From assembly GCA_965248835.1 (NCBI GenBank), contig CBDFLJ010000002.1:1984001-2048000 (forward strand): a stretch of 64,000 nucleotides of DNA, given 5' to 3'. A model generated the notes under the pieces. It did no database searches and was not told the DNA's origin. It worked only from the letters and a program-made list of their open reading frames with translations. The position numbers and the translations under genes are program-made. Positions 15,968-27,911 of the stretch are shown here, piece by piece; positions within the stretch are counted from its first letter, which is position 1, and each line of letters begins with the position of its first letter. Origin of the DNA: Alphaproteobacteria bacterium. Lineage in GTDB: Bacteria; Pseudomonadota; Alphaproteobacteria; MPNO01.

Positions 15968-16007
15968 GGCTGCACCCCCCAAATCGACTTGTAAAATACG
16001 ATAAATC

Positions 16008-16030
16008 CTTACTGAAAGCGATAAAGTAAG
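16008..16030. promoter_or_regulatory. Putative VapB operator
   Basis: CTTACT-N11-AGTAAG inverted repeat in an AT-rich stretch about 40 nt upstream of the antitoxin start. Confidence 0.5.
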
Positions 16031-16520
16031 CAATATGATTCGTGTGTCTTGAGGCACATTGCCCCGCCAGACCCCTTCCCAGCGGCTTGATCCGACGTCG
16101 CCGGCGACGCGGCTCCTCGATTTTTCGCTTTGCGTTGTTTAACAGCCTGGTTCGCCTTGGCCCCGCATTTCGACATTTCCTAACCGGCTCCGATATGTAT
16201 CCAGCGGAAGTCGGACCACATGGGTCCGGCTGATCACCAGTTCGCCCAGGGCTACCGCCTGCAGAAGGACTGCCCTCCACGACACTGGAGGCCTGGGCAG
16301 CAACGCGTCTCGAGCCCGCGGCTTTCTTGGCCGGTTCCATCTTGCGCCAGAGCCATATCGATCCGGCGAAAGCAGGTTCGGCGAACCCGACGTCCCGAGT
16401 GCAATGTGGTTCGTCGGCCTCCCAGGACTCCATGTTGGCGGCTGCGTAGAGCGCAATTTCCCGCCTGCTTGATTCCCTCGACCCCTGGTTGGTCCTGGCG
16501 AACGAAGAGTGTCCTTACCG

Positions 16521-16552
16521 TCAGACCTGTTTACAGGCTATATTTGGTCTGA
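16521..16552. promoter_or_regulatory. Putative Phd/YefM operator
   Basis: TCAGACC-N18-GGTCTGA with nested CCTGT-TT-ACAGG, immediately before the AAAGGAGG RBS. Confidence 0.6.
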
Positions 16553-16565
16553 AAGGAGGCGGCTC

Positions 16566-16841
16566 ATGAAACTGTCCGACCAAATCAGGCCGATCAGTTA
16601 TCTCAAGGCCCACGCCGCCGAGATCGTGCGCACTCTCGGCGACCAGGGGGAACCCTTGATTATCACCCAGAACGGCGAGGCCAAGGTGGTCATCCAGGAT
16701 ATCGCCAGCTACGAACGGATGCAGGAAACCATTGCCCTGCTGAAGGTGCTCGCGCTGGGTGACCGCCAGGTCGAAGCGGGTCGGGTGCAACCCGCCGCCG
16801 ATGTCATCGCGCGGCTGCGGGAGCGGCAACGGGCTCGCTGA
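16566..16841 (+). CDS. Phd/YefM-family antitoxin
   Basis: IRPISYLKAHAAEIV...PLIITQNGEAKVVIQDIASYE; strong RBS. Confidence 0.92.
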   Translation: MKLSDQIRPISYLKAHAAEIVRTLGDQGEPLIITQNGEAKVVIQDIASYERMQETIALLKVLALGDRQVEAGRVQPAADVIARLRERQRAR

Positions 16842-17167
16842 TGCCCTTCCTGGTCCAGTTGACCGATGACGCGGCGCGCGGCCTGGAGGAGATTTGCGAC
16901 TACATCGACCGACACGACTCGGCCGCGAGTGCTGACCATGTGTTGGATCGGATCGAGAAGACGTTCGCCAACCTTTCGGAACATCCCCGGCGCGGCAGCT
17001 ACCCCAAGGAACTGCTGGACATTGGGCTTCGGGAGTACCGGGAGGTTTTCCTCAAGCCCTGCCGAATCATCTACCGAGTGGTCGAGGACAACGTCTACGT
17101 GATGGTGATCGCCGACGGGCGCCGCGACATGCGGGCGTTGCTGGAGCGGCGCCTGCTGCAGGCATGA
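16841..17167 (+). CDS. RelE/ParE-family toxin
   Basis: LEEICDYI, PRRG, YRE...RIIYRV...IADGRRD; TGATG coupling to the antitoxin. Confidence 0.9.
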   Translation: MPFLVQLTDDAARGLEEICDYIDRHDSAASADHVLDRIEKTFANLSEHPRRGSYPKELLDIGLREYREVFLKPCRIIYRVVEDNVYVMVIADGRRDMRALLERRLLQA

Positions 17168-17906
17168 GAGTCAGACCCGAAGAGAGTTGTTGTTTTTCAT
17201 TGCTTACCAATCTCCTGGTGAGGTGTTGGACGCCGGCGATGAAGAGCCGGGCCTGGGCAGCGGCGATGGTTGCCTCGAAGTCCTTTGCCGGCCGGCGGTT
17301 GCGGCTGCGCCAAGCCAGGGTGCGCTCGACCACCCAGCGGCGCGGCATCACCTGGAAGCCTTGCGTGGCGGCCCGCTTGACGATCTCCAGGGTCCAGCGG
17401 CCAACCCGCCTCAGCACCGCCTCGAGCTTGGGTCCGGCATAGCCGCCGTCGGCGAAGACGTGGCGCAGCCACGGGAAAGCGTGACGGATGGAAGCGAGCA
17501 CCGCAGGCGCCCCGTCGCGGTCCTGGATGTCGGCGGCATGGACCCGCGCGGTGACCAGCAGACCGCCGGTGTCGGTGAGGATATGACGCTTGCGGCCCTT
17601 GACCAACTTACCTGCGTCAAAACCCCGCGGTCCGCCGCTTTCCGTGGTCTTGACCGACCGGCTGTCGATGATCCCGGCACCCGGGCTGGCCCCGCGTCCC
17701 TCCGCCTCGCGCGCGGCCATCAGCAACCCATGGTTGACACCTTCCCAAACGCCATCGTCCCGCCACGCATAGAAGGAGCGTTGCACCCTCGCGCGCGTAT
17801 TTCGGGCGCGTGATTTCATTCCACATGTCGTGCCGCGATGTTTGTTGATCCACAACCATCCAAACACAACGCACTGAAATCACTCAATTTATTTCGGGCC
17901 GGACAC
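17168..17906 (-). mobile_element. IS5-family (IS1031-like) element with internally deleted transposase
   Basis: Imperfect terminal IRs GAGTCAGACCCGAA (17168-17181) and TTCGGGCCGGACAC (17893-17906); N-terminus MWNEITRPKYAREG joined out of frame to IIDSRSVKT...GRKRH...ADGGY...RRWVVERT (DDE core). Confidence 0.9.
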
Positions 17907-17909
17907 TAA

Positions 17910-18085
17910 CATCGAACATGGAATAGAGAAACATATCAAACGTTATCAATGTGGCTTTTTTTCAGAAAGGACTCGGACTGGGCTAATGAGGACGAATATA
18001 GATGGGTGATCCATCGACGCGCCAAGGGTCACATTTCTGTCCCGTTTGGTGACGCTCTCACATCAATAATTTTGGGAGCGGAGGG
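17910..18085 (+). pseudogene. Low-GC remnant of a DUF2971-like gene
   Basis: FFRKDSDWANEDEYRW and LTSIILG resemble the K-x2-W-x2-E-x-E-Y-R motif; AT-rich; 5' part absent at the IS boundary. Confidence 0.5.
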
Positions 18086-18113: not shown

Positions 18114-18419
18114 TCATTCTTCGAGCGCACGCACGACCGCCTCGGGATCGCGCGCGATGACAGTCAGCAGGACACGGGCGGCGCGGTCCGGCACGCGGCG
18201 CCCCTGTTCCCAATCCTGCACGGCGCGGGCATCGAGGCCGAACCGGTCCGCAAACTTCTGGCGACTCAGCTTCATACGCTTGCGGAGCGCGAGAATGTGC
18301 TCTGCAGCGGGATCATCGACAATGCGGCACGGTAGATCTGCTTCGCCGCGTAGGTGGGCAAGAACCTCGCCCAAGGCTGCCTCGACCTCGCGACCCACCT
18401 GGGTTCGTTCCGTCGTCAT
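18114..18419 (-). CDS. HigA-like XRE/HTH antitoxin
   Basis: LRKRMKLSRQKFADRFGLDARAVQDWEQGRRVPDRAARVLL; ATGA overlap with the upstream toxin. Confidence 0.9.
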   Translation of the reverse strand: MTTERTQVGREVEAALGEVLAHLRGEADLPCRIVDDPAAEHILALRKRMKLSRQKFADRFGLDARAVQDWEQGRRVPDRAARVLLTVIARDPEAVVRALEE

Positions 18420-18747
18420 CGATTTGCCTCCTCTTTCTTGATCGCGGCCACCAGCCGCGAAAGGGCCTTCCTGTCTGCAGGCGTCAGGTCTTCGCGGTCG
18501 GCTTTCGCATAAGCTGTCAGCATGTAGATTGCCTCGGGCCCCACGTGGTGGAAGTAGATCGTTCGGATTCCGCCTCGCTTGCCCCGTCCCGATCCCGCCC
18601 AACGTAACTTGCGAATTCCTCCCGTTCCCCGGAGCAAAGGCGCACCGCCGGGATCGGCAACGATGGCAGCCTCCATTTCCCTGCGGTCCGCTTCCGATAT
18701 CAGCTTGCGGATCGCGCGCCGTAGGTCGTAGTGGCAAAGACCCGCAT
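18416..18747 (-). pseudogene. HigB/RelE-like toxin with a 1-nt deletion near the N-terminus
   Basis: ATG 18747 gives MRVFATTTY; frameshift at about 18720; continues RAIRKLISEADRREME...GTGGIRKLRW...GKRGGIRTIYF...YAK. Confidence 0.8.
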
Positions 18748-20371: not shown

Positions 20372-21585
20372 CGCCGGGATGAGCCGGCGCGCATTCCAAA
20401 GACCGTCATGACGGCGCACATCGAGATGCCCGCCAGCGTCAACAGGCCGAGATCGGGCCGGCCGAGGTCCATCAGCCAGCCGATGGCGGGCGGGCCGGCG
20501 GCGAACCCGAGGCTGAGCCCGGTGGAGGTGTAGCCGAAGGCGAGCCCGATCGATTCGGGCGGCGATGCCGCGCGCACCAGGAGGTCGCGCGAGGGGCTGG
20601 CGATGCCCATCAGGAAGCCGCTAAGCGTGATCGCGATCAAGCCGGTGAGATAGCCGCCCCAACCCGGCGCGATGACCGCCAGGCCGAACGCGCCGCCGGC
20701 GATGGTGGCGGAAACCAGCAGATCGTGGTTGCCGATCCGATCGGCGGCGATCCCGCCCAACAGCACGCCGCCGGCCATCGCGGCGAGATAGGCGGTCAGC
20801 GCGAAATTCCCGGCTTCCTGATCGACGCCGAACAGGTCCATCATCATGATCGCGGCGAACGACGTCGCCCCGCCGACCGTCATCGAGGTCAGCATGAAAT
20901 AGAGGAACAGCGCGATCATGACGGGCGAGACCATCATGGAGACGATCTGCTTTGGGCTCTGCCATTCGCGGTTCCGGCGCGGCAGGGCGGTCCCGCCGCC
21001 GTCCTCGTCGAACGCGGCAGCGCGCCACTGGATCACCGCGGCGATCGCCAGCCCCACCGCACCGAGCGCGATCAGCGCGCCGCGCCAGCCCAACGGGATG
21101 CTGAGCGCCAGCATGGTCACCGGGGCGATCGCCCAGCCGACATAGCCGACGAAGGCATGGACGCTGACCGCGCGGCCGAGATAACCCTCGTCGATGCGCT
21201 GGGACAGGATCGCATAGTCGGCCGGATGAAAGACGCTGTTGGCCAGCCCGGCGATTGCCATCATCGCCATCAGAGGCCAGTAGCCGCCGAAAACCCCGGC
21301 GCCGACGAAGGCCCCGCCCAGGCAGGCCAACCCCAGCACCAGGATCAGCCGCCCTCCGAACCGGTCGACCAGGATGCCGACCGGGATCTGTCCGACGCTG
21401 GACGCAACGGCGAAAGCGGAGATCAACGCCCCCAGCGCGAGGTAGCTTGCCCCCAGCGCCTGGTGCAGTTGCAGGAACAGCGGCGCCAGCGCGATCGAGG
21501 TCAAGTGGCTGTAGCAGTGGCCGGCGCCGATCAGCGAGATGACGATGCGCTGCCCGGCGACGGTCCCGGCAGCTTGCGTGCTCAA
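20368..21585 (-). CDS. MFS transporter
   Basis: GILVDRFGGR motif A, NSVFHPADY, GIAADRIG. Confidence 0.9.
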   Translation of the reverse strand: MSTQAAGTVAGQRIVISLIGAGHCYSHLTSIALAPLFLQLHQALGASYLALGALISAFAVASSVGQIPVGILVDRFGGRLILVLGLACLGGAFVGAGVFGGYWPLMAMMAIAGLANSVFHPADYAILSQRIDEGYLGRAVSVHAFVGYVGWAIAPVTMLALSIPLGWRGALIALGAVGLAIAAVIQWRAAAFDEDGGGTALPRRNREWQSPKQIVSMMVSPVMIALFLYFMLTSMTVGGATSFAAIMMMDLFGVDQEAGNFALTAYLAAMAGGVLLGGIAADRIGNHDLLVSATIAGGAFGLAVIAPGWGGYLTGLIAITLSGFLMGIASPSRDLLVRAASPPESIGLAFGYTSTGLSLGFAAGPPAIGWLMDLGRPDLGLLTLAGISMCAVMTVFGMRAGSSRR

Positions 21586-22142
21586 TTGCCTTGCTCGACG
21601 TCCTTTGCCACCCGCATGCGGACGATCTTGTCGGGGTCGGTCACCACGCCGCCGCGGCGTTCGTCGCCGCGCTTGAGCCGGTCGATGAGCGCCATGCCGG
21701 AGCTCACCTTGCCCCAGACCGTGTACTGGCGGTCGAGATGCGGTGCGGGCGCGAGCATGATGAAGAACTGGCTGTCGGCGCTGTCGGGGTCCTGGGTGCG
21801 CGCCATGGAGGTCACCCCCCGGACATGGGGCGCATCGGAGAACTCCGCCGGGAGCTTGTTGCCCGACCCGCCCGAGCCGGTGCCGGTGGGATCGCCGCCC
21901 TGAGCCATGAAGCCTTCGATCACGCGGTGGAACACGACGCCGTCGTAAAACCCCTCGCGCGTGAGCCGCTTGATCTGCGCGACGTGCTTGGGCGCCAGGT
22001 CGGGGCGCATCTCGATCACCACGCGGCCGGCATCGAGGTCCATGTAGAGCGTATTTTCGAGATCGGCGGCGGGACTATCGGTGGTCATGGTCAGGAACCC
22101 CAGCAGAAGGCCGACGACTGCGGCCGGGTGAAAGCCTCTCAT
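21582..22142 (-). CDS. Cyclophilin-type peptidyl-prolyl cis-trans isomerase
   Basis: FYDGVVFHRVIEGFMAQGGDP, SMART, SQFFI, HLDRQYTVWG; N-terminal signal peptide. Confidence 0.95.
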   Translation of the reverse strand: MRGFHPAAVVGLLLGFLTMTTDSPAADLENTLYMDLDAGRVVIEMRPDLAPKHVAQIKRLTREGFYDGVVFHRVIEGFMAQGGDPTGTGSGGSGNKLPAEFSDAPHVRGVTSMARTQDPDSADSQFFIMLAPAPHLDRQYTVWGKVSSGMALIDRLKRGDERRGGVVTDPDKIVRMRVAKDVEQGN

Positions 22143-22199
22143 GGCACCTCGCAGTCCGATCGGCTGGCTGTGCGCAACTTAGCGGAGCCTCGGCGCGCG

Positions 22200-23195
22200 T
22201 CAAACGCGGAACACGCTCTGAACTTCCTTGAGATACAGGTCCTCGGGCTTGAGTTCCCTGTGGCAAAGGCCTTGCTCGAAGCAGTATTGCAGGAAGGCCT
22301 CGATGGTGGTCCGGTTGGGCTCGATGCCGTAGGGCCAGTAGTCGCCGCCCGGGAAAATCTCCTCGCCCAGCGTGGCGAGCGTGTCGTAGATCCACGGCAC
22401 CGGGATCTGCGAATGGGTGATGCTGCGCAGCCGCTCGATGCTGCGGCGTTTGGCGTCCTCGAACCCGTTGAGGAGGTTCATCGCGATCCACGGGTTGCGC
22501 TCGTAGGTCTGCCGCTTGATCGCGACCGTGTGCATGATCGGATAGATCCCGGTGCGCCTGAAATAGTCTTCCTCGGCGCTGCGGTAATCGGCAATCAGCC
22601 GCTTGATTCCCGGATCGCCGTCAAGGAACCGGCGCGGCGGGCGGGCGGAAACCAGGGCGTCGATGTCGCCGGCGATCAGCATCTCGCTGAGCGAGCGGTC
22701 GGCCACCTGGCGGTAGCGGATGTTGTCGGGCAGCTTCAGGTGGGCAAGCTCGATACGGCCCGGCTCGTTGACGCCGGCCTGCACCCATTCCACCGCATCG
22801 AGCGGGATGCCGACATCGTGCGCCAGCCAGCCGCGGGCATAGACGGTCGCGGTCTGCGACCATTCCGGGATGCCGATGCGCTTGTCGGCAAGGTCGGCGG
22901 GCGTCTGGACCGGGCCGTCGGTCCTGACATACCACGCCGAGTGGCGGAAGACGCGGCTGACCATGACGGGAATGCCGACGATCGGCGGATCGGGCTGGGA
23001 CATGAGCGAGCAGTATTTGGCGAACGACAACTCCGAGACGTCCCACTCGAAGGAGCTGGCAAAGCGGAAGAAGATCTCCTCGACGTCCAGATTGAGCCAG
23101 GTCAACTCGATGCCTTCCGCCTTGACCTTGCCCTGCAACAGATCGCGGGTGTGGTCGTACTCGTCCATCGCAAGGGTAAGGTGAATGTCGGCCAT
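22200..23195 (-). CDS. 4,5-dihydroxyphthalate decarboxylase-like protein
   Basis: YDHTRDL, EEIFFR, DVSELS, RVFRHS, GIPEWSQTA, GIYPIMH, WPYGIEPNR. Confidence 0.82.
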   Translation of the reverse strand: MADIHLTLAMDEYDHTRDLLQGKVKAEGIELTWLNLDVEEIFFRFASSFEWDVSELSFAKYCSLMSQPDPPIVGIPVMVSRVFRHSAWYVRTDGPVQTPADLADKRIGIPEWSQTATVYARGWLAHDVGIPLDAVEWVQAGVNEPGRIELAHLKLPDNIRYRQVADRSLSEMLIAGDIDALVSARPPRRFLDGDPGIKRLIADYRSAEEDYFRRTGIYPIMHTVAIKRQTYERNPWIAMNLLNGFEDAKRRSIERLRSITHSQIPVPWIYDTLATLGEEIFPGGDYWPYGIEPNRTTIEAFLQYCFEQGLCHRELKPEDLYLKEVQSVFRV

Positions 23196-23345
23196 CGCTG
23201 TCCCCGCCTGCCGGTTTCCGGTCGCGGGGCGAGAGTGCATGCTCGCCGCCACGCTGGCAATGGGCGGCGAGGAAGCGGGTGCGGGCGCGGCACATGCGCG
23301 CTATGCTCTTCACCGAGACCGAAGACCCGCGGGGAGCGGACCAGG

Positions 23346-24257
23346 ATGTCGAAACGACCGCAGATCGATCCGCAGGCGGCCAAGGAAGAGATCGTCGCCT
23401 ATTGCAAGCGCAAGGGCGCGCTGGCGGTCGGCGTCGCCGACGTCGAGGCGCTGGAGAGGATCGCCCCGCCGGGCCACCGGCCGTCGGACCTCATGCCCAA
23501 GGTGAAATCGGTGATCGCACTGGGCGTCGGCGGGCAGACCCAGGGCGCCTGGGCGCTGCCGGCCAAGGCCCTGGGCTATTTCGGCAGCACCGAGACCAGG
23601 GCGTATTCGATCTCCTACGGCTGCGCGTTCTTCATCGAGAACAGGTTCGGCAAGCGCGCAGTCTATTGTCCGCCGGACATGGACACCGAGTCCGGGCCGC
23701 GCGTGCCGTTGCAGAGCCTGAAGCTCCATGCCGAGGTGGCCGGGATCGGCGCCCGGTCGCTTGCCGGCGACATCCTGCTGCACCCGGAGTTCGGCTACAT
23801 GTATTTCGCCTCGGTCTTTACCGAGCTCGCGCTTCCGCCCGATTCGCCGATGGAGGACAACCCCTGCCCCGCGCCGTCCTGCGTCAGCCTCTACCGCAAG
23901 ACCGGCCAGACGCCGTGCATGAAGTTCTGCCCGGTCCAGTGCCTGTCGGGCGAGATCGACGCGGACGGCAACCAGGCGATGATGCGCTACGACATGGCGG
24001 CATGCGCGGAGATGACCCAGCAGTTCGAGGCGGTTCCCTCGATGATCGCCGATGCGGTGACCGCCGAGGACGCCCAGGCGCGCGAGGATGCGCTGTTCGA
24101 CGCCGACAACAAGATCCTCTGGTACAAGATGTCGGTCGGCACCGGAGGGTTGTTGGGTCAATGTTTCGAATGCATGCGGGTCTGTCCGATCGCCAACCAG
24201 GCGCCGATGGCCGATCCGATCCGCCGCTTCGAGACGGCGCTCGAAGCCGAAGACTGA
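23346..24257 (+). CDS. QueG/reductive-dehalogenase-like 2x[4Fe-4S] protein (putatively cobalamin-binding)
   Basis: VGVAD, KSVIALG, KLHAEVAGIG...LLHPEFG...VFTELALPPD, C-x4-C...C-x3-CP, isolated C, C-x2-C-x3-CP; GGAG RBS. Confidence 0.8.
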   Translation: MSKRPQIDPQAAKEEIVAYCKRKGALAVGVADVEALERIAPPGHRPSDLMPKVKSVIALGVGGQTQGAWALPAKALGYFGSTETRAYSISYGCAFFIENRFGKRAVYCPPDMDTESGPRVPLQSLKLHAEVAGIGARSLAGDILLHPEFGYMYFASVFTELALPPDSPMEDNPCPAPSCVSLYRKTGQTPCMKFCPVQCLSGEIDADGNQAMMRYDMAACAEMTQQFEAVPSMIADAVTAEDAQAREDALFDADNKILWYKMSVGTGGLLGQCFECMRVCPIANQAPMADPIRRFETALEAED

Positions 24258-24260
24258 GCG

Positions 24261-25763
24261 ATGACCCGCGGGCTCAACCGGCGCCAGATGGGCCTGACCG
24301 AGGCAATGGTCGAGGCCTACGGCGATACCGTCTGGGAGCTCAGCCACAACATCCAGGTCCGCATCGGCGATCCCGTCCGAATGCTCGACTGGGAGCAGAT
24401 CGAGCGCCAGCGGCCGGGCACCGGCATGTCCGATGGACAGATCGCCGAGAAGATCGGACTGACCCGCGATCAGGTCACCCATATCCGGCTCCTGCTCGAA
24501 CACCGCCGTTTCCAGCGCGACCATTACCACCGCCTCTACAAGCTGGGCGGCGGCAAGCGCTACCGGGCGGACCGCCGGGACGGCCCCGAGGATCGGCAAC
24601 CGCTGAGCGATCAAGCGATGGCGCTGCGCGAGGCGCTCGACTTCGACCCGCGTGAGGTCGACCGCTATCTGCGCACCGGGCTGTGGGCGGCATCGACTCC
24701 GGCGAGCCGGCTGCGGGCGCTGGCCGCCGATCTCGGCGACCGGCCTGCGCTGATCACCGCCGCGGGCACGCTCGACTATGCCGCGCTGCACGCCGATGCG
24801 GAGCGCGCCGCCTGCCGGATGAGGCAGCGCGGACTCGGGCGGGGCGAGGTCGTCGCGGTGGAGGTCGTCGCGGTGGAGGTCGGCGCGCTGGCGCCGCTGG
24901 TGCTGGCCTATTGCGCGGTATCGCTCGCCGGCGCGGTGCTTTGCGTGCTGCCCGCCGGCCTCGGCGAGAAAGCGCGGCGCGACTGCCTGACCAGGGCCTC
25001 GGCGGTCGGGCTGTTCGCCGACCTCGCCGAGGGGGCGCCGGACGAGGACGCGCCAGCCGAACCGGAGCCCGCCCCGGTCGCCAGCGACCCGTTGGCGGTG
25101 CTGTTCGCCGAGCCCGGCACGCCGCGCGCCGTCGTCCACAATTCCCATACCCTGCTCGCCGGTATCGACGCGGTCGCGGCCGGCTACGGCCTGTCGGCGG
25201 ACGACCGTCTGGCGGTCGGCAGCGGCGTCGACGGGGCGGCGGCGCTGGTGGCAGTCAACCTCGCGCTTGCCAGCGGTGCGGCGCTCGACGACACCGGCGG
25301 CCGCGCGACGGTGGCGTTCTGCGCCGACGGCGCCGCGCCGCCATCGTCCGCCGATCTGAGGCTGGTCGTTGCGACCGGCCGGGAAGCGGCCGCGCTCGAA
25401 GCCCGCCTGGGCACCGTCCCGGTCTGCCGCGCTTGCATGAGTGCGGAGGCCCAGCTCATGTTCACGGCCAGGCCCGAAGACGACGCGGCGGTCCGCCACG
25501 CGACCGTCGGGATGCCGAACCCCGCGATGTCGGCCCGCGTCGTCGCCGATGACGGCGATGTCCTGGCGGCGGGCAGCGAAGGCGCGCTCGAGATCCGCGG
25601 CGCGAACCTCGCCCCGTCCTATCTCGGCGACGACAGGGCGAACCGCACCGCGTTCAGCGGCGATCGCTGGCTGCGCACCGGGCTTCGCTGCGTGATCCAT
25701 CCCGGCGGTGCGGTCGAACCGCTGGATGGAATTCCGGCTGTTCAATTTCGCCGCTCGGGTTGA
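24261..25763 (+). CDS. HTH-like domain fused to a degenerate AMP-binding (acyl-CoA ligase) domain
   Basis: GMSDGQIAEKIGLTRDQVTHIRLL; then ligase-like YLRTGLW...DRPAL, GLGRGEVV, GTPRAVVH, TVGMP, GALEIRG, WLRTG; C-terminal subdomain missing. Confidence 0.7.
   Translation: MTRGLNRRQMGLTEAMVEAYGDTVWELSHNIQVRIGDPVRMLDWEQIERQRPGTGMSDGQIAEKIGLTRDQVTHIRLLLEHRRFQRDHYHRLYKLGGGKRYRADRRDGPEDRQPLSDQAMALREALDFDPREVDRYLRTGLWAASTPASRLRALAADLGDRPALITAAGTLDYAALHADAERAACRMRQRGLGRGEVVAVEVVAVEVGALAPLVLAYCAVSLAGAVLCVLPAGLGEKARRDCLTRASAVGLFADLAEGAPDEDAPAEPEPAPVASDPLAVLFAEPGTPRAVVHNSHTLLAGIDAVAAGYGLSADDRLAVGSGVDGAAALVAVNLALASGAALDDTGGRATVAFCADGAAPPSSADLRLVVATGREAAALEARLGTVPVCRACMSAEAQLMFTARPEDDAAVRHATVGMPNPAMSARVVADDGDVLAAGSEGALEIRGANLAPSYLGDDRANRTAFSGDRWLRTGLRCVIHPGGAVEPLDGIPAVQFRRSG
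24846..24882 (+). repeat. In-frame 15-bp tandem duplication
   Basis: GAGGTCGTCGCGGTG x2 plus partial third copy (EVVAV-EVVAV-EV). Confidence 0.85.
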
Positions 25764-25822
25764 GAGATCGATCAACCGGACCGGCCGCGCCGCCTGACCC
25801 GGGCGGGGGGAGGATTTCAGCT

Positions 25823-26509
25823 ATGGATCTCGTGGTCGCGCCGCTGCCGCCGCCGACCGTGGGCGTCGCGGGCCAATCGGCGCGGTTCCCGGTCCGCCGG
25901 ATCTACACGATCGGCCGGAACTATGCCGCCCATGCGCGCGAAACCGGCCTCGGCGGGGCGGCCGGCTCGAAACCCGGCATATCGCTCAAACCGGCGGACT
26001 CGATCGCAGCCGCCGGGCGGATCGCCTACCCGCCCGGCACCGACCGGCTGGAGCCGGAGGTCGAGATGGTCGTGGCGATCGGTACCGGCGGGGCCGACAT
26101 CGCACGGCCGGACGCGCTCGGCCATGTTTATGGCTATGCGGTCGGGTTCGACCTGATCCGCCGCGACATCATGCACGCCTGCATCGCAGACCAGCACTCC
26201 TGGGACCTCTGCAAGAGCTTCGACGGCGCCTCTCCGATCAGCGCGATCGCCCCGGCCGCGGCCATCGGCCACCCCGATAGCGGCGCGATAACGCTGGACA
26301 TCAACGGAACCGTGCGCCAGCGCGGCGACCTCTCGGACATGATCTGGGACGTGCCGGAGATCATCGTACGCCTGTCCGCGCTCAGCCGGCTGGAGCCCGG
26401 CGACCTGGTGTATACCGGCACGCCCAAGGGGCCCGGACCGGTGGTGCGCGGCGACCGCCTCGATGGAAGGGTGGACGGGATCGCCACGCTGTCGGTCACG
26501 ATCGTGTGA
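25823..26509 (+). CDS. Fumarylacetoacetate-hydrolase family protein (NagK-like)
   Basis: FPVRRIYTIGRNYAAH, EVEMVV, GYAVGFD, KSFD, GDLVYTGTP; GGAGGA RBS. Confidence 0.9.
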   Translation: MDLVVAPLPPPTVGVAGQSARFPVRRIYTIGRNYAAHARETGLGGAAGSKPGISLKPADSIAAAGRIAYPPGTDRLEPEVEMVVAIGTGGADIARPDALGHVYGYAVGFDLIRRDIMHACIADQHSWDLCKSFDGASPISAIAPAAAIGHPDSGAITLDINGTVRQRGDLSDMIWDVPEIIVRLSALSRLEPGDLVYTGTPKGPGPVVRGDRLDGRVDGIATLSVTIV

Positions 26510-26627
26510 ATGCCCGGCGCGCGGCGGCGGGATCGGTGATTTCGCGCCGTGCGTTTTTCGATCCCGCGCATCGCCGCTCACCCGTTCTCGGCTTAACAAC
26601 CTCATGATGCCGCGCTACCATCACTCC

Positions 26628-27911
26628 ATGGATGGGGATGAGCGCGCAGACCGGGGCGCAACCGACCTCGAGAACGCGGCTGCGGTCTGGCTGAAAACGG
26701 GCTATGTGCCGAGCCTTCGCGGACCCGGGCCGGGTGTGTTTGCTCTCGGGCTGGCCGGGTTCGCGGGTGTGCTGGCTTTGCTGTTCCCGGGACCGGACGC
26801 CGCCTTTGGCGCCGGACTGGCCGCCGGTGCCGGCACCCTGGCCTTCGCCCTGAAATCACGGCCATACCGGCAGGAATCCGTGCTGCTGGTCGCGATGGCG
26901 GTGCTGATCATCGTCTGGGTCTCATGCCTGAAGTCGACGCCCGCATTCGATGGCACGCTGAACCGCATCGCCGCCATCGGCGCGGCCTGCGTGATCGTCG
27001 GGCTGGCCCGTTTCGTCGCGCTCCGCCGCCATGCGCTGCAATCCATCGCCGAGGCGAGTGCGGATTGGACCGTCGGCGACATGGTCGCCTATGCGGAGTT
27101 CCTGCTCGACCGGCGGCCCTGCCCGGGCGCCGACGACGCGGCGCGGGCGCTCTACCAGCGGGCAGCGGAAATGCTGCTGGACAAACCCTGGCACGAACGG
27201 CGCGACATCAAGGTGATCGAACGCTTCGCGGGCCTGCTGAGCGAGCGGGCGCCGAGCGCCGCGGATATGGACGTCGCCCGCATCTGGCGCGACCACGCGC
27301 GCGCACTGGGCGCGTTCGCCATCGACACCGACGAGCCCGCCCCCGGCGCCCCGCGCAATGTCTACGAAGCCGATGACAGGAACCCACGGACGGGTTTCGA
27401 TGATTTCGGCTTCCGCCGCGGCATCCCGGTGTGGCGGCTCAAAGTGGCCAACCCGGATTCCCTGCTGGACGGCGAGGCGGTGTTCCGCGCGTTCCTGCTG
27501 CCGGAGGGGGCGCTGCTGGCGTGCCTGGTCCGGTTCGAGAGCGTGGTCGACCGCACCGTGCTGGTCCATCGGGTGTTCGACGTCTCCGATCCGTCGGTGG
27601 AGACCTATATGGCCGGGTCGGAGCACCATCTGCGTTGGCGCATCGAGATGTATGACGCCAAGCAGGTCGGCAGCACCGACCTCGTTCCGGCGCGCGAGCC
27701 CGATGCCGTGCGCGAGGTCGACCTGAAAGACAGCGGCCTGATGGCCGCGTTCGAGCAGGTGCTGGCCCACAACGCGGCGCTCGGGGTGCATGCCGACATC
27801 GGATCGGCCTACGCCTTCCTGACCGCGACCTTCCGGGAATACACGGCGAGCTACGGCATCGAAGCCGCGTGGTCAGCCCTGGAAGCCGCCTGCGCGCGGG
27901 TATCCGATTAG
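26628..27911 (+). CDS. Hypothetical membrane protein (about 4 N-terminal TM segments plus soluble domain)
   Basis: Long ORF with coding-like codon use and four hydrophobic stretches; no recognised motif; start uncertain (26604 or 26628). Confidence 0.65.
   Translation: MDGDERADRGATDLENAAAVWLKTGYVPSLRGPGPGVFALGLAGFAGVLALLFPGPDAAFGAGLAAGAGTLAFALKSRPYRQESVLLVAMAVLIIVWVSCLKSTPAFDGTLNRIAAIGAACVIVGLARFVALRRHALQSIAEASADWTVGDMVAYAEFLLDRRPCPGADDAARALYQRAAEMLLDKPWHERRDIKVIERFAGLLSERAPSAADMDVARIWRDHARALGAFAIDTDEPAPGAPRNVYEADDRNPRTGFDDFGFRRGIPVWRLKVANPDSLLDGEAVFRAFLLPEGALLACLVRFESVVDRTVLVHRVFDVSDPSVETYMAGSEHHLRWRIEMYDAKQVGSTDLVPAREPDAVREVDLKDSGLMAAFEQVLAHNAALGVHADIGSAYAFLTATFREYTASYGIEAAWSALEAACARVSD

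Follow-up and report, generated by a model that had tools for sequence, protein, structure and literature searches.

A Small QueG/RdhA-Fold Iron–Sulfur Protein Linked to a Conserved, Ligase-Fused Domain: A Candidate Two-Subunit Cobalamin-Dependent Reductase from an Alphaproteobacterium

What is the function of a small iron–sulfur protein that resembles epoxyqueuosine reductase (QueG) and the reductive dehalogenases (RdhA), is neither of them, and is encoded next to what looks like a dead acyl-coenzyme A (acyl-CoA) ligase? This question is raised by two adjacent genes, hereafter gene 1 and gene 2, in a 64,000-nt stretch of an alphaproteobacterial genome (contig CBDFLJ010000002.1 of assembly GCA_965248835.1, positions 1,984,001 to 2,048,000 of the forward strand); this whole stretch is referred to below as the window. 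The original prediction, made from the letters of the DNA, described the pair as a cobalamin (B12)- and Fe–S-dependent enzyme with a dead ligase fused to a helix-turn-helix (HTH) domain. According to the reading favored here, to which we give an even chance, the gene 1 product and the N-terminal domain of the gene 2 product (the N-domain) would form a heteromeric B12/Fe–S reductase whose substrate is an activated acid, probably an aromatic one; in the clade of the window, the ligase part of gene 2 would be a scaffold, and the activation would take place in trans. The features concerned are as follows (window coordinates).

23346..24257, + strand: gene 1, ATG to stop, 303 aa, a QueG/RdhA-fold protein
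24258..24260, + strand: spacer between the gene 1 stop and the gene 2 start, 3 nt, tight coupling
24261..25763, + strand: gene 2, ATG to stop, 500 aa
24261..24635, + strand: N-domain of gene 2 (residues 1–125), undescribed and highly conserved, a predicted docking/lid subunit for gene 1
24636..25763, + strand: ligase remnant of gene 2, retaining the large N-terminal subdomain of an ANL adenylate-forming enzyme

The coordinates and the 3-nt distance initially given for the pair are correct. A purine-rich GGGGAG is located 9 nt upstream of the ATG of gene 1, whose homologs begin at the same methionine; a scan for promoters and terminators revealed nothing useful between the two genes.

Structural Affiliation of Gene 1

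The translation of gene 1 contains the segment A132-G-I-G135, L144-LHPEFG150, and F157-TEL160 as well as the two-cluster cysteine pattern noticed at the outset. In a 37-sequence alignment of the family and its distant relatives, C174, C179, C191, C220, C273, C276, and C280 show no variation, and C195 shows almost none. The first cluster motif bears long inserts (C-x4-C-x11-C-x3-C); with these, the spacing of the eight cysteines fits the accommodation of two [4Fe–4S] clusters. The N-terminus, MSKRPQIDPQAAKEE, when read directly, harbors neither an RR motif nor a hydrophobic stretch, i.e., no twin-arginine (Tat) or hydrophobic signal.

Searches by sequence capture little of this protein. No Pfam family scored above its cut-off; the sole NCBIfam match was the QueG model TIGR00276 (26.1 bits vs. 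a cut-off of 200; residues 129–210), and the sole PDB sequence match was QueG 5d08 (E 0.024; residues 126–180), so the AGIG...HPEFG...FTEL segment is the only part of gene 1 linked to QueG in this way. Starting from the 37-sequence alignment, AlphaFold2 gave a confident model with a predicted local distance difference test score (pLDDT) of 88.7 and a predicted template modeling score (pTM) of 0.85. The matches of this model listed by Foldseek at E ≤ 0.001 were all reductive dehalogenases or epoxyqueuosine reductases, with MMACHC/CblC coming next at E ~2e-3; no other family gave a significant hit. Superposition with VIA-align yielded Z 18.4 for QueG 5d0a (root-mean-square deviation (rmsd) 3.1 over 210 residues, 23% identity; residues 8–292 of the model on 2–259 of QueG), Z 16.6 for PceA, Z 16.3 for NpRdhA, Z 10.7 for MMACHC, and Z ~6 for flavin nitroreductases. 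The profile of gene 1 was also aligned by hhalign with the QueG of its own genome at a probability of 98.8% (E 1.1e-16, 224 columns, 23% identity).

With Z 16–18 to QueG and RdhA over ~210–220 residues, the predicted structure makes gene 1 a true member of the structural superfamily combining a corrinoid-type nitroreductase-like core with a two-[4Fe–4S] ferredoxin module. QueG and RdhA were named Class III cobalamin-dependent enzymes by Payne et al. 2015 (PMC4646009, cited throughout from a part of its text).

Gene 1 shares with QueG (5d08, 5d0a, and 5t8y from B. subtilis; 5d6s from S. thermophilus) the order of the core and the ferredoxin module, the common AG(L/I)G...PE(Y/F)G...T(E/T)L segment, and the cytoplasmic localization. 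Still, the possibility that gene 1 is QueG was ruled out by the low TIGR00276 score, the missing DYH motif and tRNA-binding domain, and the presence of a canonical QueG elsewhere in the genome. The latter protein, the existence of which was to be checked according to the original prediction, comprises 387 aa, scores 438.7 bits on TIGR00276, and possesses YAQGRDYH, VDTAP, and the C-terminal extension. At the hhalign positions of the QueG motif YAxGxDYH and of the catalytic Asp, the gene 1 family displays non-conserved residues or gaps; this Asp is Asp134 in B. subtilis and Asp130 in S. thermophilus QueG, the residue roles being those given in the available parts of PMC4646009 and PMC5175355. 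Gene 1 stops, at residue 303, where the C-terminal HEAT-like RNA-binding domain of QueG would start; in B. subtilis QueG, this domain extends from Leu257 to Leu385 (PMC5175355, cited here and below from a part of its text).

A more distant likeness is that to MMACHC/CblC (3som, 3sc0, 9mrs), which has the corrinoid-binding core in common with gene 1 at a much lower similarity (Z 10.2–10.7) and, according to the part of PMC4646009 at hand, differs from it in having no ferredoxin module. In the entry 9mrs, MMACHC was solved with its partner MMADHC, which is loosely reminiscent of a corrinoid enzyme made up of two proteins.

A strict RdhA would be a special case of the reading favored here and not a true alternative to it. 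If so, gene 1 would encode a catabolic reductive dehalogenase with a halogenated aromatic acid, or the CoA ester of one, as its substrate, which we consider unlikely. The fold of the cofactor core is shared with PceA (4ur3, 4uqu) and the cytoplasmic NpRdhA (4ras, 6zy1) at Z 16.2–16.6; like NpRdhA and other catabolic RdhAs, gene 1 has no Tat signal and no RdhB anchor encoded nearby; the ligase is of the aryl-acid type (see below), and relatives of gene 1 are present in marine metagenomes. At the same time, the RdhA model TIGR02486 yielded no match to gene 1 at E ≤ 0.1 (a paralog from locus L075 reached 38 bits, below the cut-off of 160), and no Pfam family was assigned at cut-off. The 303 aa of gene 1, devoid of the N-terminal substrate-side elaborations of RdhA, compare with PceA chains of 413–458 and NpRdhA chains of 691–701 residues, i.e., far below the ~690–700 residues of the latter. 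The Tyr/Arg proton-relay pair described in the available part of PMC4646009 has no counterpart in gene 1, as judged by alignment to QueG only. Finally, gene 1 is partnered by a soluble domain of ~125 aa, in contrast to the membrane anchor or the fused reductase seen with RdhAs; no small rdhB-like membrane gene occurs beside the pair, and the neighbors of gene 1 are a decarboxylase-like gene and gene 2. Thus, the three absences claimed originally (QueG-type YA.G.DYH motif, Tat signal, and rdhB neighbor) have all been borne out, and the profile searches together with the predicted fold agree with a cytoplasmic QueG/RdhA-fold Fe–S protein which is neither the housekeeping QueG nor an RdhA recognized by its model.

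In sequence space, the gene 1 family seems compact and isolated. With phmmer, no more than 303 of 1.84 billion representatives were matched at E ≤ 1e-3, among which one full-length representative at 73% identity was followed by a gap down to paralog families of ~290 aa at ≤39%. A search for proteins of near length returned 731, the best 120 of which were 74–94% identical and mostly without a name; some close relatives carry the automatic label “epoxyqueuosine reductase QueG” of the Joint Genome Institute (JGI). The identity of gene 1 across Alpha-, Beta-, and Gammaproteobacteria amounts to 66–94%.

The Constant Partner of Gene 1

Through gene 1, 80 genomic loci (denoted below by L numbers) were retrieved from Alpha-, Beta-, and Gammaproteobacteria and from one Gemmatimonadales metagenome-assembled genome. 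In all 80 of them, the N-domain is encoded directly downstream of gene 1, mostly at a spacing of −4 to +14 nt. This pairing is far above chance, and the suspected dedicated partner has thereby been recovered in the neighborhood survey. What is constant is the N-domain and not the ligase: in L051, L058, and L059, the N-domain is a complete stand-alone open reading frame (ORF) of 108–109 aa, and a database search revealed many more N-domain proteins of ~105–111 aa, some of them on long contigs. Across the 80 loci, the identity to the window is 47–89% for the N-domain vs. 24–68% for the ligase part. The genome of the window contains one copy of the N-domain, and 7 of the 201 sampled alphaproteobacterial genomes possess it.

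The N-domain has no family in Pfam or NCBIfam. Its alignment of 31 sequences comprises 18 invariant columns, many of which are Arg. Its designation as HTH in the original prediction is backed by sub-threshold matches only: the best Pfam matches, HTH_24 and HTH_23 among them, had E 0.07–0.19, below the cut-offs; the best hit of a PDB profile search (E 0.038, 32 residues) was the HTH segment of a designed DNA-binding protein; and in the ESM Atlas, HTH clusters scored 0.85, with a best score of 0.88, again sub-threshold. These matches center on residues 46–77; on such sequence similarity, “HTH” is a label rather than a finding.

Complex prediction points to binding of the N-domain to gene 1. For gene 1 with the N-domain, the interface score ipSAE was 0.83, 0.83, and 0.84 vs. 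0.00 for the best of three controls; the runs had at least 83% of their contacts in common, with a partner pLDDT of at least 73. In the calibration of the tool, 58 of 80 solved complexes attained this mark, as did 2 of 110 mismatched pairs; for predictions made, as here, on our own alignments, the calibration is only approximate. On the side of the N-domain, the predicted interface comprises most of the invariant residues (S28, N30, Q32, R34, G36, D37, R40, R76, E80, L95, G96, and R100), along with the stretches 33–35 and 90–98, whose pLDDT falls below 50 in the monomer model. On the side of gene 1, it comprises residues 70–77, 116–120, 127–142, 193–198, and 209–232, which hhalign maps to the Cbl-insert, the Asp134 loop, the AG(L/I)G region, and the Fd-insert of QueG. 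In QueG, the face composed of the Cbl-insert, the Asp134 loop, and the Fd-insert forms the active site and carries the HEAT domain, according to the available part of PMC5175355. The prediction supports the view that the N-domain probably binds gene 1, and the N-domain would then act as a lid or recognition subunit in trans. In this, gene 1 would differ from QueG in having a separate subunit on its substrate face; it also differs in its strict linkage to a ligase-fused domain.

A fused form of the two-protein system may be represented by P0169 (401 aa) and P0175 (391 aa), distant relatives of gene 1 with a C-terminal extension of ~100 aa, the core of which is weakly similar to the N-domain. 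The similarity is suggestive only, both for P0175 (BLASTP E 0.009; hhalign probability 63%, E 7e-5) and for P0169 (BLASTP E 1.9; hhalign probability 28%).

The position of the predicted partner also bears on another explanation, namely that gene 1 encodes either an additional epoxyqueuosine reductase or some other reductase that modifies nucleic acids, with the basic, HTH-like N-domain in place of the HEAT domain. We find this quite improbable. It would account for QueG being the best structural match (Z 18.4), for the JGI name of the relatives, for the invariant Arg residues and the weak HTH-like core of the N-domain, for its predicted location on the face where QueG has its RNA-binding domain (PMC5175355, in the part available), and for the unusual conservation of gene 1 (66–94% across proteobacterial classes). 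It is at odds, however, with the 26 bits vs. 200 on TIGR00276, with the DYH motif and the catalytic Asp not being conserved, and with the canonical QueG (439 bits), which adjoins a further open frame. The patchy distribution of the module (7 of 201 Alphaproteobacteria) is unlike that of a core tRNA-modification enzyme, nothing comparable to the fusion with an acid-activating ligase exists in queuosine synthesis, and the HTH matches are all sub-threshold.

Decay and Retention of the Ligase Part

The product of gene 2 scores 63.3 bits on the Pfam family AMP-binding (PF00501; cut-off 29.9), compared with 256 bits plus AMP-binding_C for a full-length homolog; PF13193 found no match in the window’s gene 2. 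Five ANL motifs, namely the P-loop (T/S)SG(T/S)xxxPK, GxTE, TGD, the GRxKD hinge, and the C-terminal subdomain with the A10 Lys, were scored by our own regular expressions in the 80 loci and the window (81 copies). The copy of the window has none of the five. All five are present in 53 copies and four in 3; 17 copies have one or none, 3 consist of the N-domain only, and 5 are cut by contig ends. The degenerate copies are those of the window, L001–L012, L017, and L033, plus L048 and L055, where an assembly artefact may be responsible.

Most of the gene 2 homologs, by contrast, are proteins of ~653 aa with TSGT(S/T)xxPK, WGMTE, (R/K)TGD, GRxKDxINRGG, and a C-terminal domain ending in PxTxTRKIIKG. 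Where the live ligases have TSGTSxxPK, the window’s copy reads FAEPGTPRA, and it ends before the hinge; in its clade, the gene 2 proteins comprise 462–542 aa and the C-terminal subdomain is gone. A search for ligase residues 424–528 at the window’s locus gave no match anywhere. Within the remnant lies a further peculiarity.

24846..24891, + strand: 15-nt in-frame tandem repeat, 3.1 copies, unit GAGGTCGTCGCGGTG

The repeat gives rise to VVAVEVVAVEV where the live ligases have VVAVQLPN, and the closest relative, L001, has a five-residue gap there. The original description of a dead acyl-CoA ligase thus applies to the copy of the window and not to the system, in which the conserved partner is the N-domain; judging from the distribution of the motifs, the dead ligase is a derived trait of the window’s clade.

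The AlphaFold2 model of the remnant is confident (pLDDT 88.6). Its residues 115–500 match only the large N-terminal domain of aryl-acid adenylating enzymes at rmsd 2.2–2.6, with DhbE at Z 39.3 and MbtA, BasE, FbsH, CahJ, EntE, PchD, and FscC at Z 37–39. The 24 best structural matches are salicylate/dihydroxybenzoate adenylating enzymes (Z 37–39), while other ANL enzymes score ~35. Full-length homologs reach 251–275 bits on the dihydroxybenzoate (DHB)-AMP ligase model and 275–313 bits on that of cyclohexanecarboxylate-CoA ligase, all below the cut-offs. Although the window’s gene 2 superposes on the large domain of DhbE, EntE, BasE, MbtA, CahJ, and PchD, it differs from these enzymes by the loss of every catalytic motif and of the C-terminal domain. 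The gene 2 family furthermore carries the extra N-domain or has it encoded next door; by their entry titles, none of the structural matches listed has a QueG/RdhA-fold partner.

Is the remnant still of use to the cell? The ratios of nonsynonymous to synonymous substitution rates (dN/dS) were estimated by the Nei–Gojobori method among 12 clade members, for the remnant only in pairs with dS < 1.2. They amounted to 0.06–0.20 for gene 1, 0.04–0.47 for the N-domain, and 0.19–0.72 for the remnant; on these values, the latter is relaxed but not neutral, as a pseudoenzyme or scaffold behaves. The same values bear on the explanation that the window’s system is heading for loss, with gene 2 decaying and the pair no longer functional, which appears very improbable. 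The loss of five ligase motifs and the C-terminal domain, the expansion of the 15-nt repeat, and the evolution of the ligase part at 3–5 times the rate of gene 1 would be expected in this case. Against this stand the open frame of gene 2 in 14 of the 15 clade copies (only that in L006 looks broken), dN/dS < 1 in every pair, with clear purifying selection on gene 1 and the N-domain, and the confident model of the remnant. In L006 (6913–8303), the gene 2 match is split, with residues 1–276 and residues 148–360 of the C-part lying in different pieces and an ORF of 365 aa; from the sequence, either a frameshift or a misassembly accounts for this.

Least probable of all, in our estimation, is a redox-sensing regulator with gene 1 as an Fe–S sensor, a DNA-binding N-domain, an effector-binding ligase part, and catalysis dispensable in the clade: a dead ligase kept under selection would suit ligand sensing, and the N-domain is weakly HTH-like (HTH_24/HTH_23 E 0.07–0.17; PDB E 0.038; Atlas 0.85), but these matches are all sub-threshold, the invariant residues of the N-domain lie at the predicted protein interface and not on a free recognition helix, the ligase motifs are all kept in most lineages, and gene 1 retains the full two-cluster, corrinoid-type enzyme fold.

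A query with one ligase found 58 ANL-like matches in the window’s genome, a number unusually high for 4.9 Mb. The best match (C2:1621946-1623475), located ~385 kb from the pair, has all the motifs intact. It is 42% identical to the fused live ligase of L014 and 49.5% to that of L070, which are 49% identical to each other, and 46–47% identical to the stand-alone ligases of L051 and L059; by these identities, it is probably orthologous to the fused live ligases. Its neighbors code for an enoyl-CoA hydratase, a cupin, a DUF3891 protein, a VanA-like Rieske oxygenase, and a TauD-family dioxygenase.

The Putative Heteromeric Reductase

In the favored reading, the heteromeric reductase, gene 1 would be the catalytic subunit from an uncharacterised branch of Class III, keeping only the cofactor core and dispensing with a substrate-recognition domain, whereas the N-domain of ~125 residues would be the second, obligate subunit placed over the cofactor face. 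Since the adaptor is fused in most lineages to a working adenylate-forming ligase, apparently of the aryl-acid type, the ancestral system would activate an organic, probably aromatic, acid. The resulting acyl-CoA or acyl-adenylate would be passed directly to the reductase for a two-electron reduction, for instance a dehalogenation, deoxygenation, or dehydroxylation, the electron donor being of the ferredoxin type. In the clade of the window, the fused ligase would persist as a pseudoenzyme scaffold under relaxed purifying selection, and the activation would presumably be taken over by the separate, probably orthologous, ligase ~385 kb away. The alternatives considered above all draw on some of the observations but account for fewer of them.

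The use of B12 by this system is plausible, as the genome encodes the canonical QueG, two B12-binding domains, and a cobalamin riboswitch (C1:413586-413791, 95 bits), the latter two found in the genome-wide search; at the locus itself, an Rfam scan of 21500–26600 found nothing and hence no cobalamin riboswitch. Judging by its gene content, the organism uses corrinoids but probably imports them.

Several points weigh against the heteromeric reductase. In the genome, which was scored as 100% complete, neither CobS (PF02654) nor CobN (TIGR02257) found a match, so any corrinoid would need import. A cobalamin-binding sequence motif is absent from Class III enzymes according to the available part of PMC4646009. 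The Tyr above the corrin (that of the DYH motif), conserved in QueG and RdhA according to the same part of that paper, has no clear counterpart in gene 1, nor does the catalytic Asp of QueG. The complex of gene 1 with the N-domain is a prediction made on our own alignments, with the approximate calibration mentioned above. Genes for ABC transporters, SDRs, PaaK-like ligases, and extra paralogs (see below) each occur in fewer than 10 non-syntenic loci; as the neighbors beyond the pair are not universal, the CoA-ester catabolism invoked in this reading rests on the ligase fusion and a patchy context. No electron donor gene is linked to the pair. The stand-alone ligase at C2:1621946-1623475 may be a paralog with another job, in view of the enoyl-CoA hydratase, VanA-like, and TauD-family neighbors.

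A more far-reaching version is offered tentatively and with clearly less than even expectations. In this version, the pair would represent a new kind of Class III enzyme in which an adaptor, itself tethering an acid-activating ligase, contributes the lid/recognition half of the active site in trans, and the ligase–reductase channel would reduce an acyl-CoA or acyl-adenylate with B12. The adaptor would be the indispensable part here, because it survives the death of the ligase in the window’s clade. We know of only two established activities for the class combining a corrinoid with two [4Fe–4S] clusters, reductive dehalogenation and epoxyqueuosine reduction; to our knowledge, the B12-dependent reduction of an acyl-CoA or acyl-adenylate is not a chemistry known for cobalamin.

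In the full-text literature searched, with most subscription journals outside the coverage, no paper on the pairing of gene 1 and gene 2 was found, in agreement with the initial remark that no such system was known to have been described. A 2025 survey of “RdhA-like” proteins (PMC12219181, available in part) gives 300–1000 aa for the cytosolic forms, and CoA is absent from its main text as available. The part of PMC4646009 available anticipates that there may be more B12/[4Fe–4S] families, out of reach of motif searches.

Against this background, the gene 1 family is a concrete candidate for a further Class III family: small, soluble, very conserved, patchy in distribution, and invariably coupled to the same partner domain. 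The fusion with the ligase offers a direct route to the substrate via the acid activated by the live ligases, and the clade of the window is a natural experiment that parts the adaptor function from the ligase function. Were the chemistry to prove new, the known repertoire of B12 in aerobic, B12-importing bacteria would be widened; if the reading is true, the automatic JGI name “QueG” on some relatives of gene 1 would be corrected.

Genomic Context of the Pair

The genes flanking the pair in the window have the identities initially proposed for them.

22200..23252, − strand: 4,5-dihydroxyphthalate-decarboxylase-like gene, divergent neighbor; PDB 9jp7, E 8.9e-72, residues 6–342 (full length)
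25760..26509, + strand: FAA_hydrolase, fumarylacetoacetate-hydrolase (FAH) family, downstream neighbor; Pfam PF01557, 149 bits

If the TTG at 25760 is used, the start of the FAH-family ORF overlaps the stop of gene 2. The decarboxylase-like gene occurs near gene 1 in 34 of the 80 loci and the FAH gene downstream in 31, all of them alphaproteobacterial, and most of these loci also contain a cyclophilin gene; therefore, shared descent is as good an explanation of the linkage as function, and it may be plain synteny. The suggested linkage to catabolic genes is accordingly retained for the alphaproteobacterial subset and does not extend across the other loci.

Among the neighbors at the non-syntenic loci are parts of a Liv-type ATP-binding cassette (ABC) transporter (6–9 loci per component), short-chain dehydrogenases/reductases (SDRs; 8 loci), PaaK-like ligases (7), further QueG/RdhA-like paralogs (6), and a cluster resembling acyl-CoA dehydrogenase, named by its sequence only (4 loci). 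The clustering of neighbor ORFs was noisy in high-GC loci, where some of the apparent clusters consisted of frames antisense to, or overlapping with, genes 1 and 2; only Pfam-confirmed clusters were used. In L059, the following genes are arranged on one strand: an unknown gene, a stand-alone ANL ligase, two QueG/RdhA-like paralogs, a PaaK-like ligase, gene 1, the free N-domain (108 aa), and a five-gene Liv-type ABC importer.

A cassette of similar composition is present elsewhere in the window’s genome (C2:1186813-1190204; L088 8814–12205), where tandem QueG/RdhA-like paralogs of 341 and 336 aa are followed by a PaaK-like ligase. Their identities to the three genes that immediately precede gene 1 in L059 are 79%, 69%, and 58%. 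Near the cassette, there are genes for, among others, GTP cyclohydrolase II, an FMN-dependent dehydrogenase, a Rieske oxygenase, an enoyl-CoA hydratase, and a further ANL ligase. The paralog pair was found in three of five N-domain carriers and in none of five non-carriers, a small sample of genomes which are not independent. Including the tandem pair, the genome possesses five QueG/RdhA-like paralogs besides the canonical QueG and gene 1. The other three, at C1:1771561-1772064 (L082), C1:760774-761127 (L083), and C2:2474093-2474416 (L085), score 39–73 bits on the QueG model, below its cut-off; in two of them, which were read, the motifs AGLGELGKHGS and CxxCxxC...CxxCxxxCP were seen.

Two minor observations concern the remainder of the window. 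An ORF of 482 aa (26463–27911, + strand) overlaps the end of the FAH gene; it was assigned to no Pfam family, contains a hydrophobic stretch weakly similar to FUSC_2, is 79% conserved in L001, and is otherwise weakly matched in L012 only. On the − strand at 18114–18737, there are two small ORFs, one of 86 aa (18416–18676) and the other with an HTH-like end sequence, in a region of lower G+C (0.613 at 16001–18000); the two may be a toxin–antitoxin pair of the HigB/HigA type.

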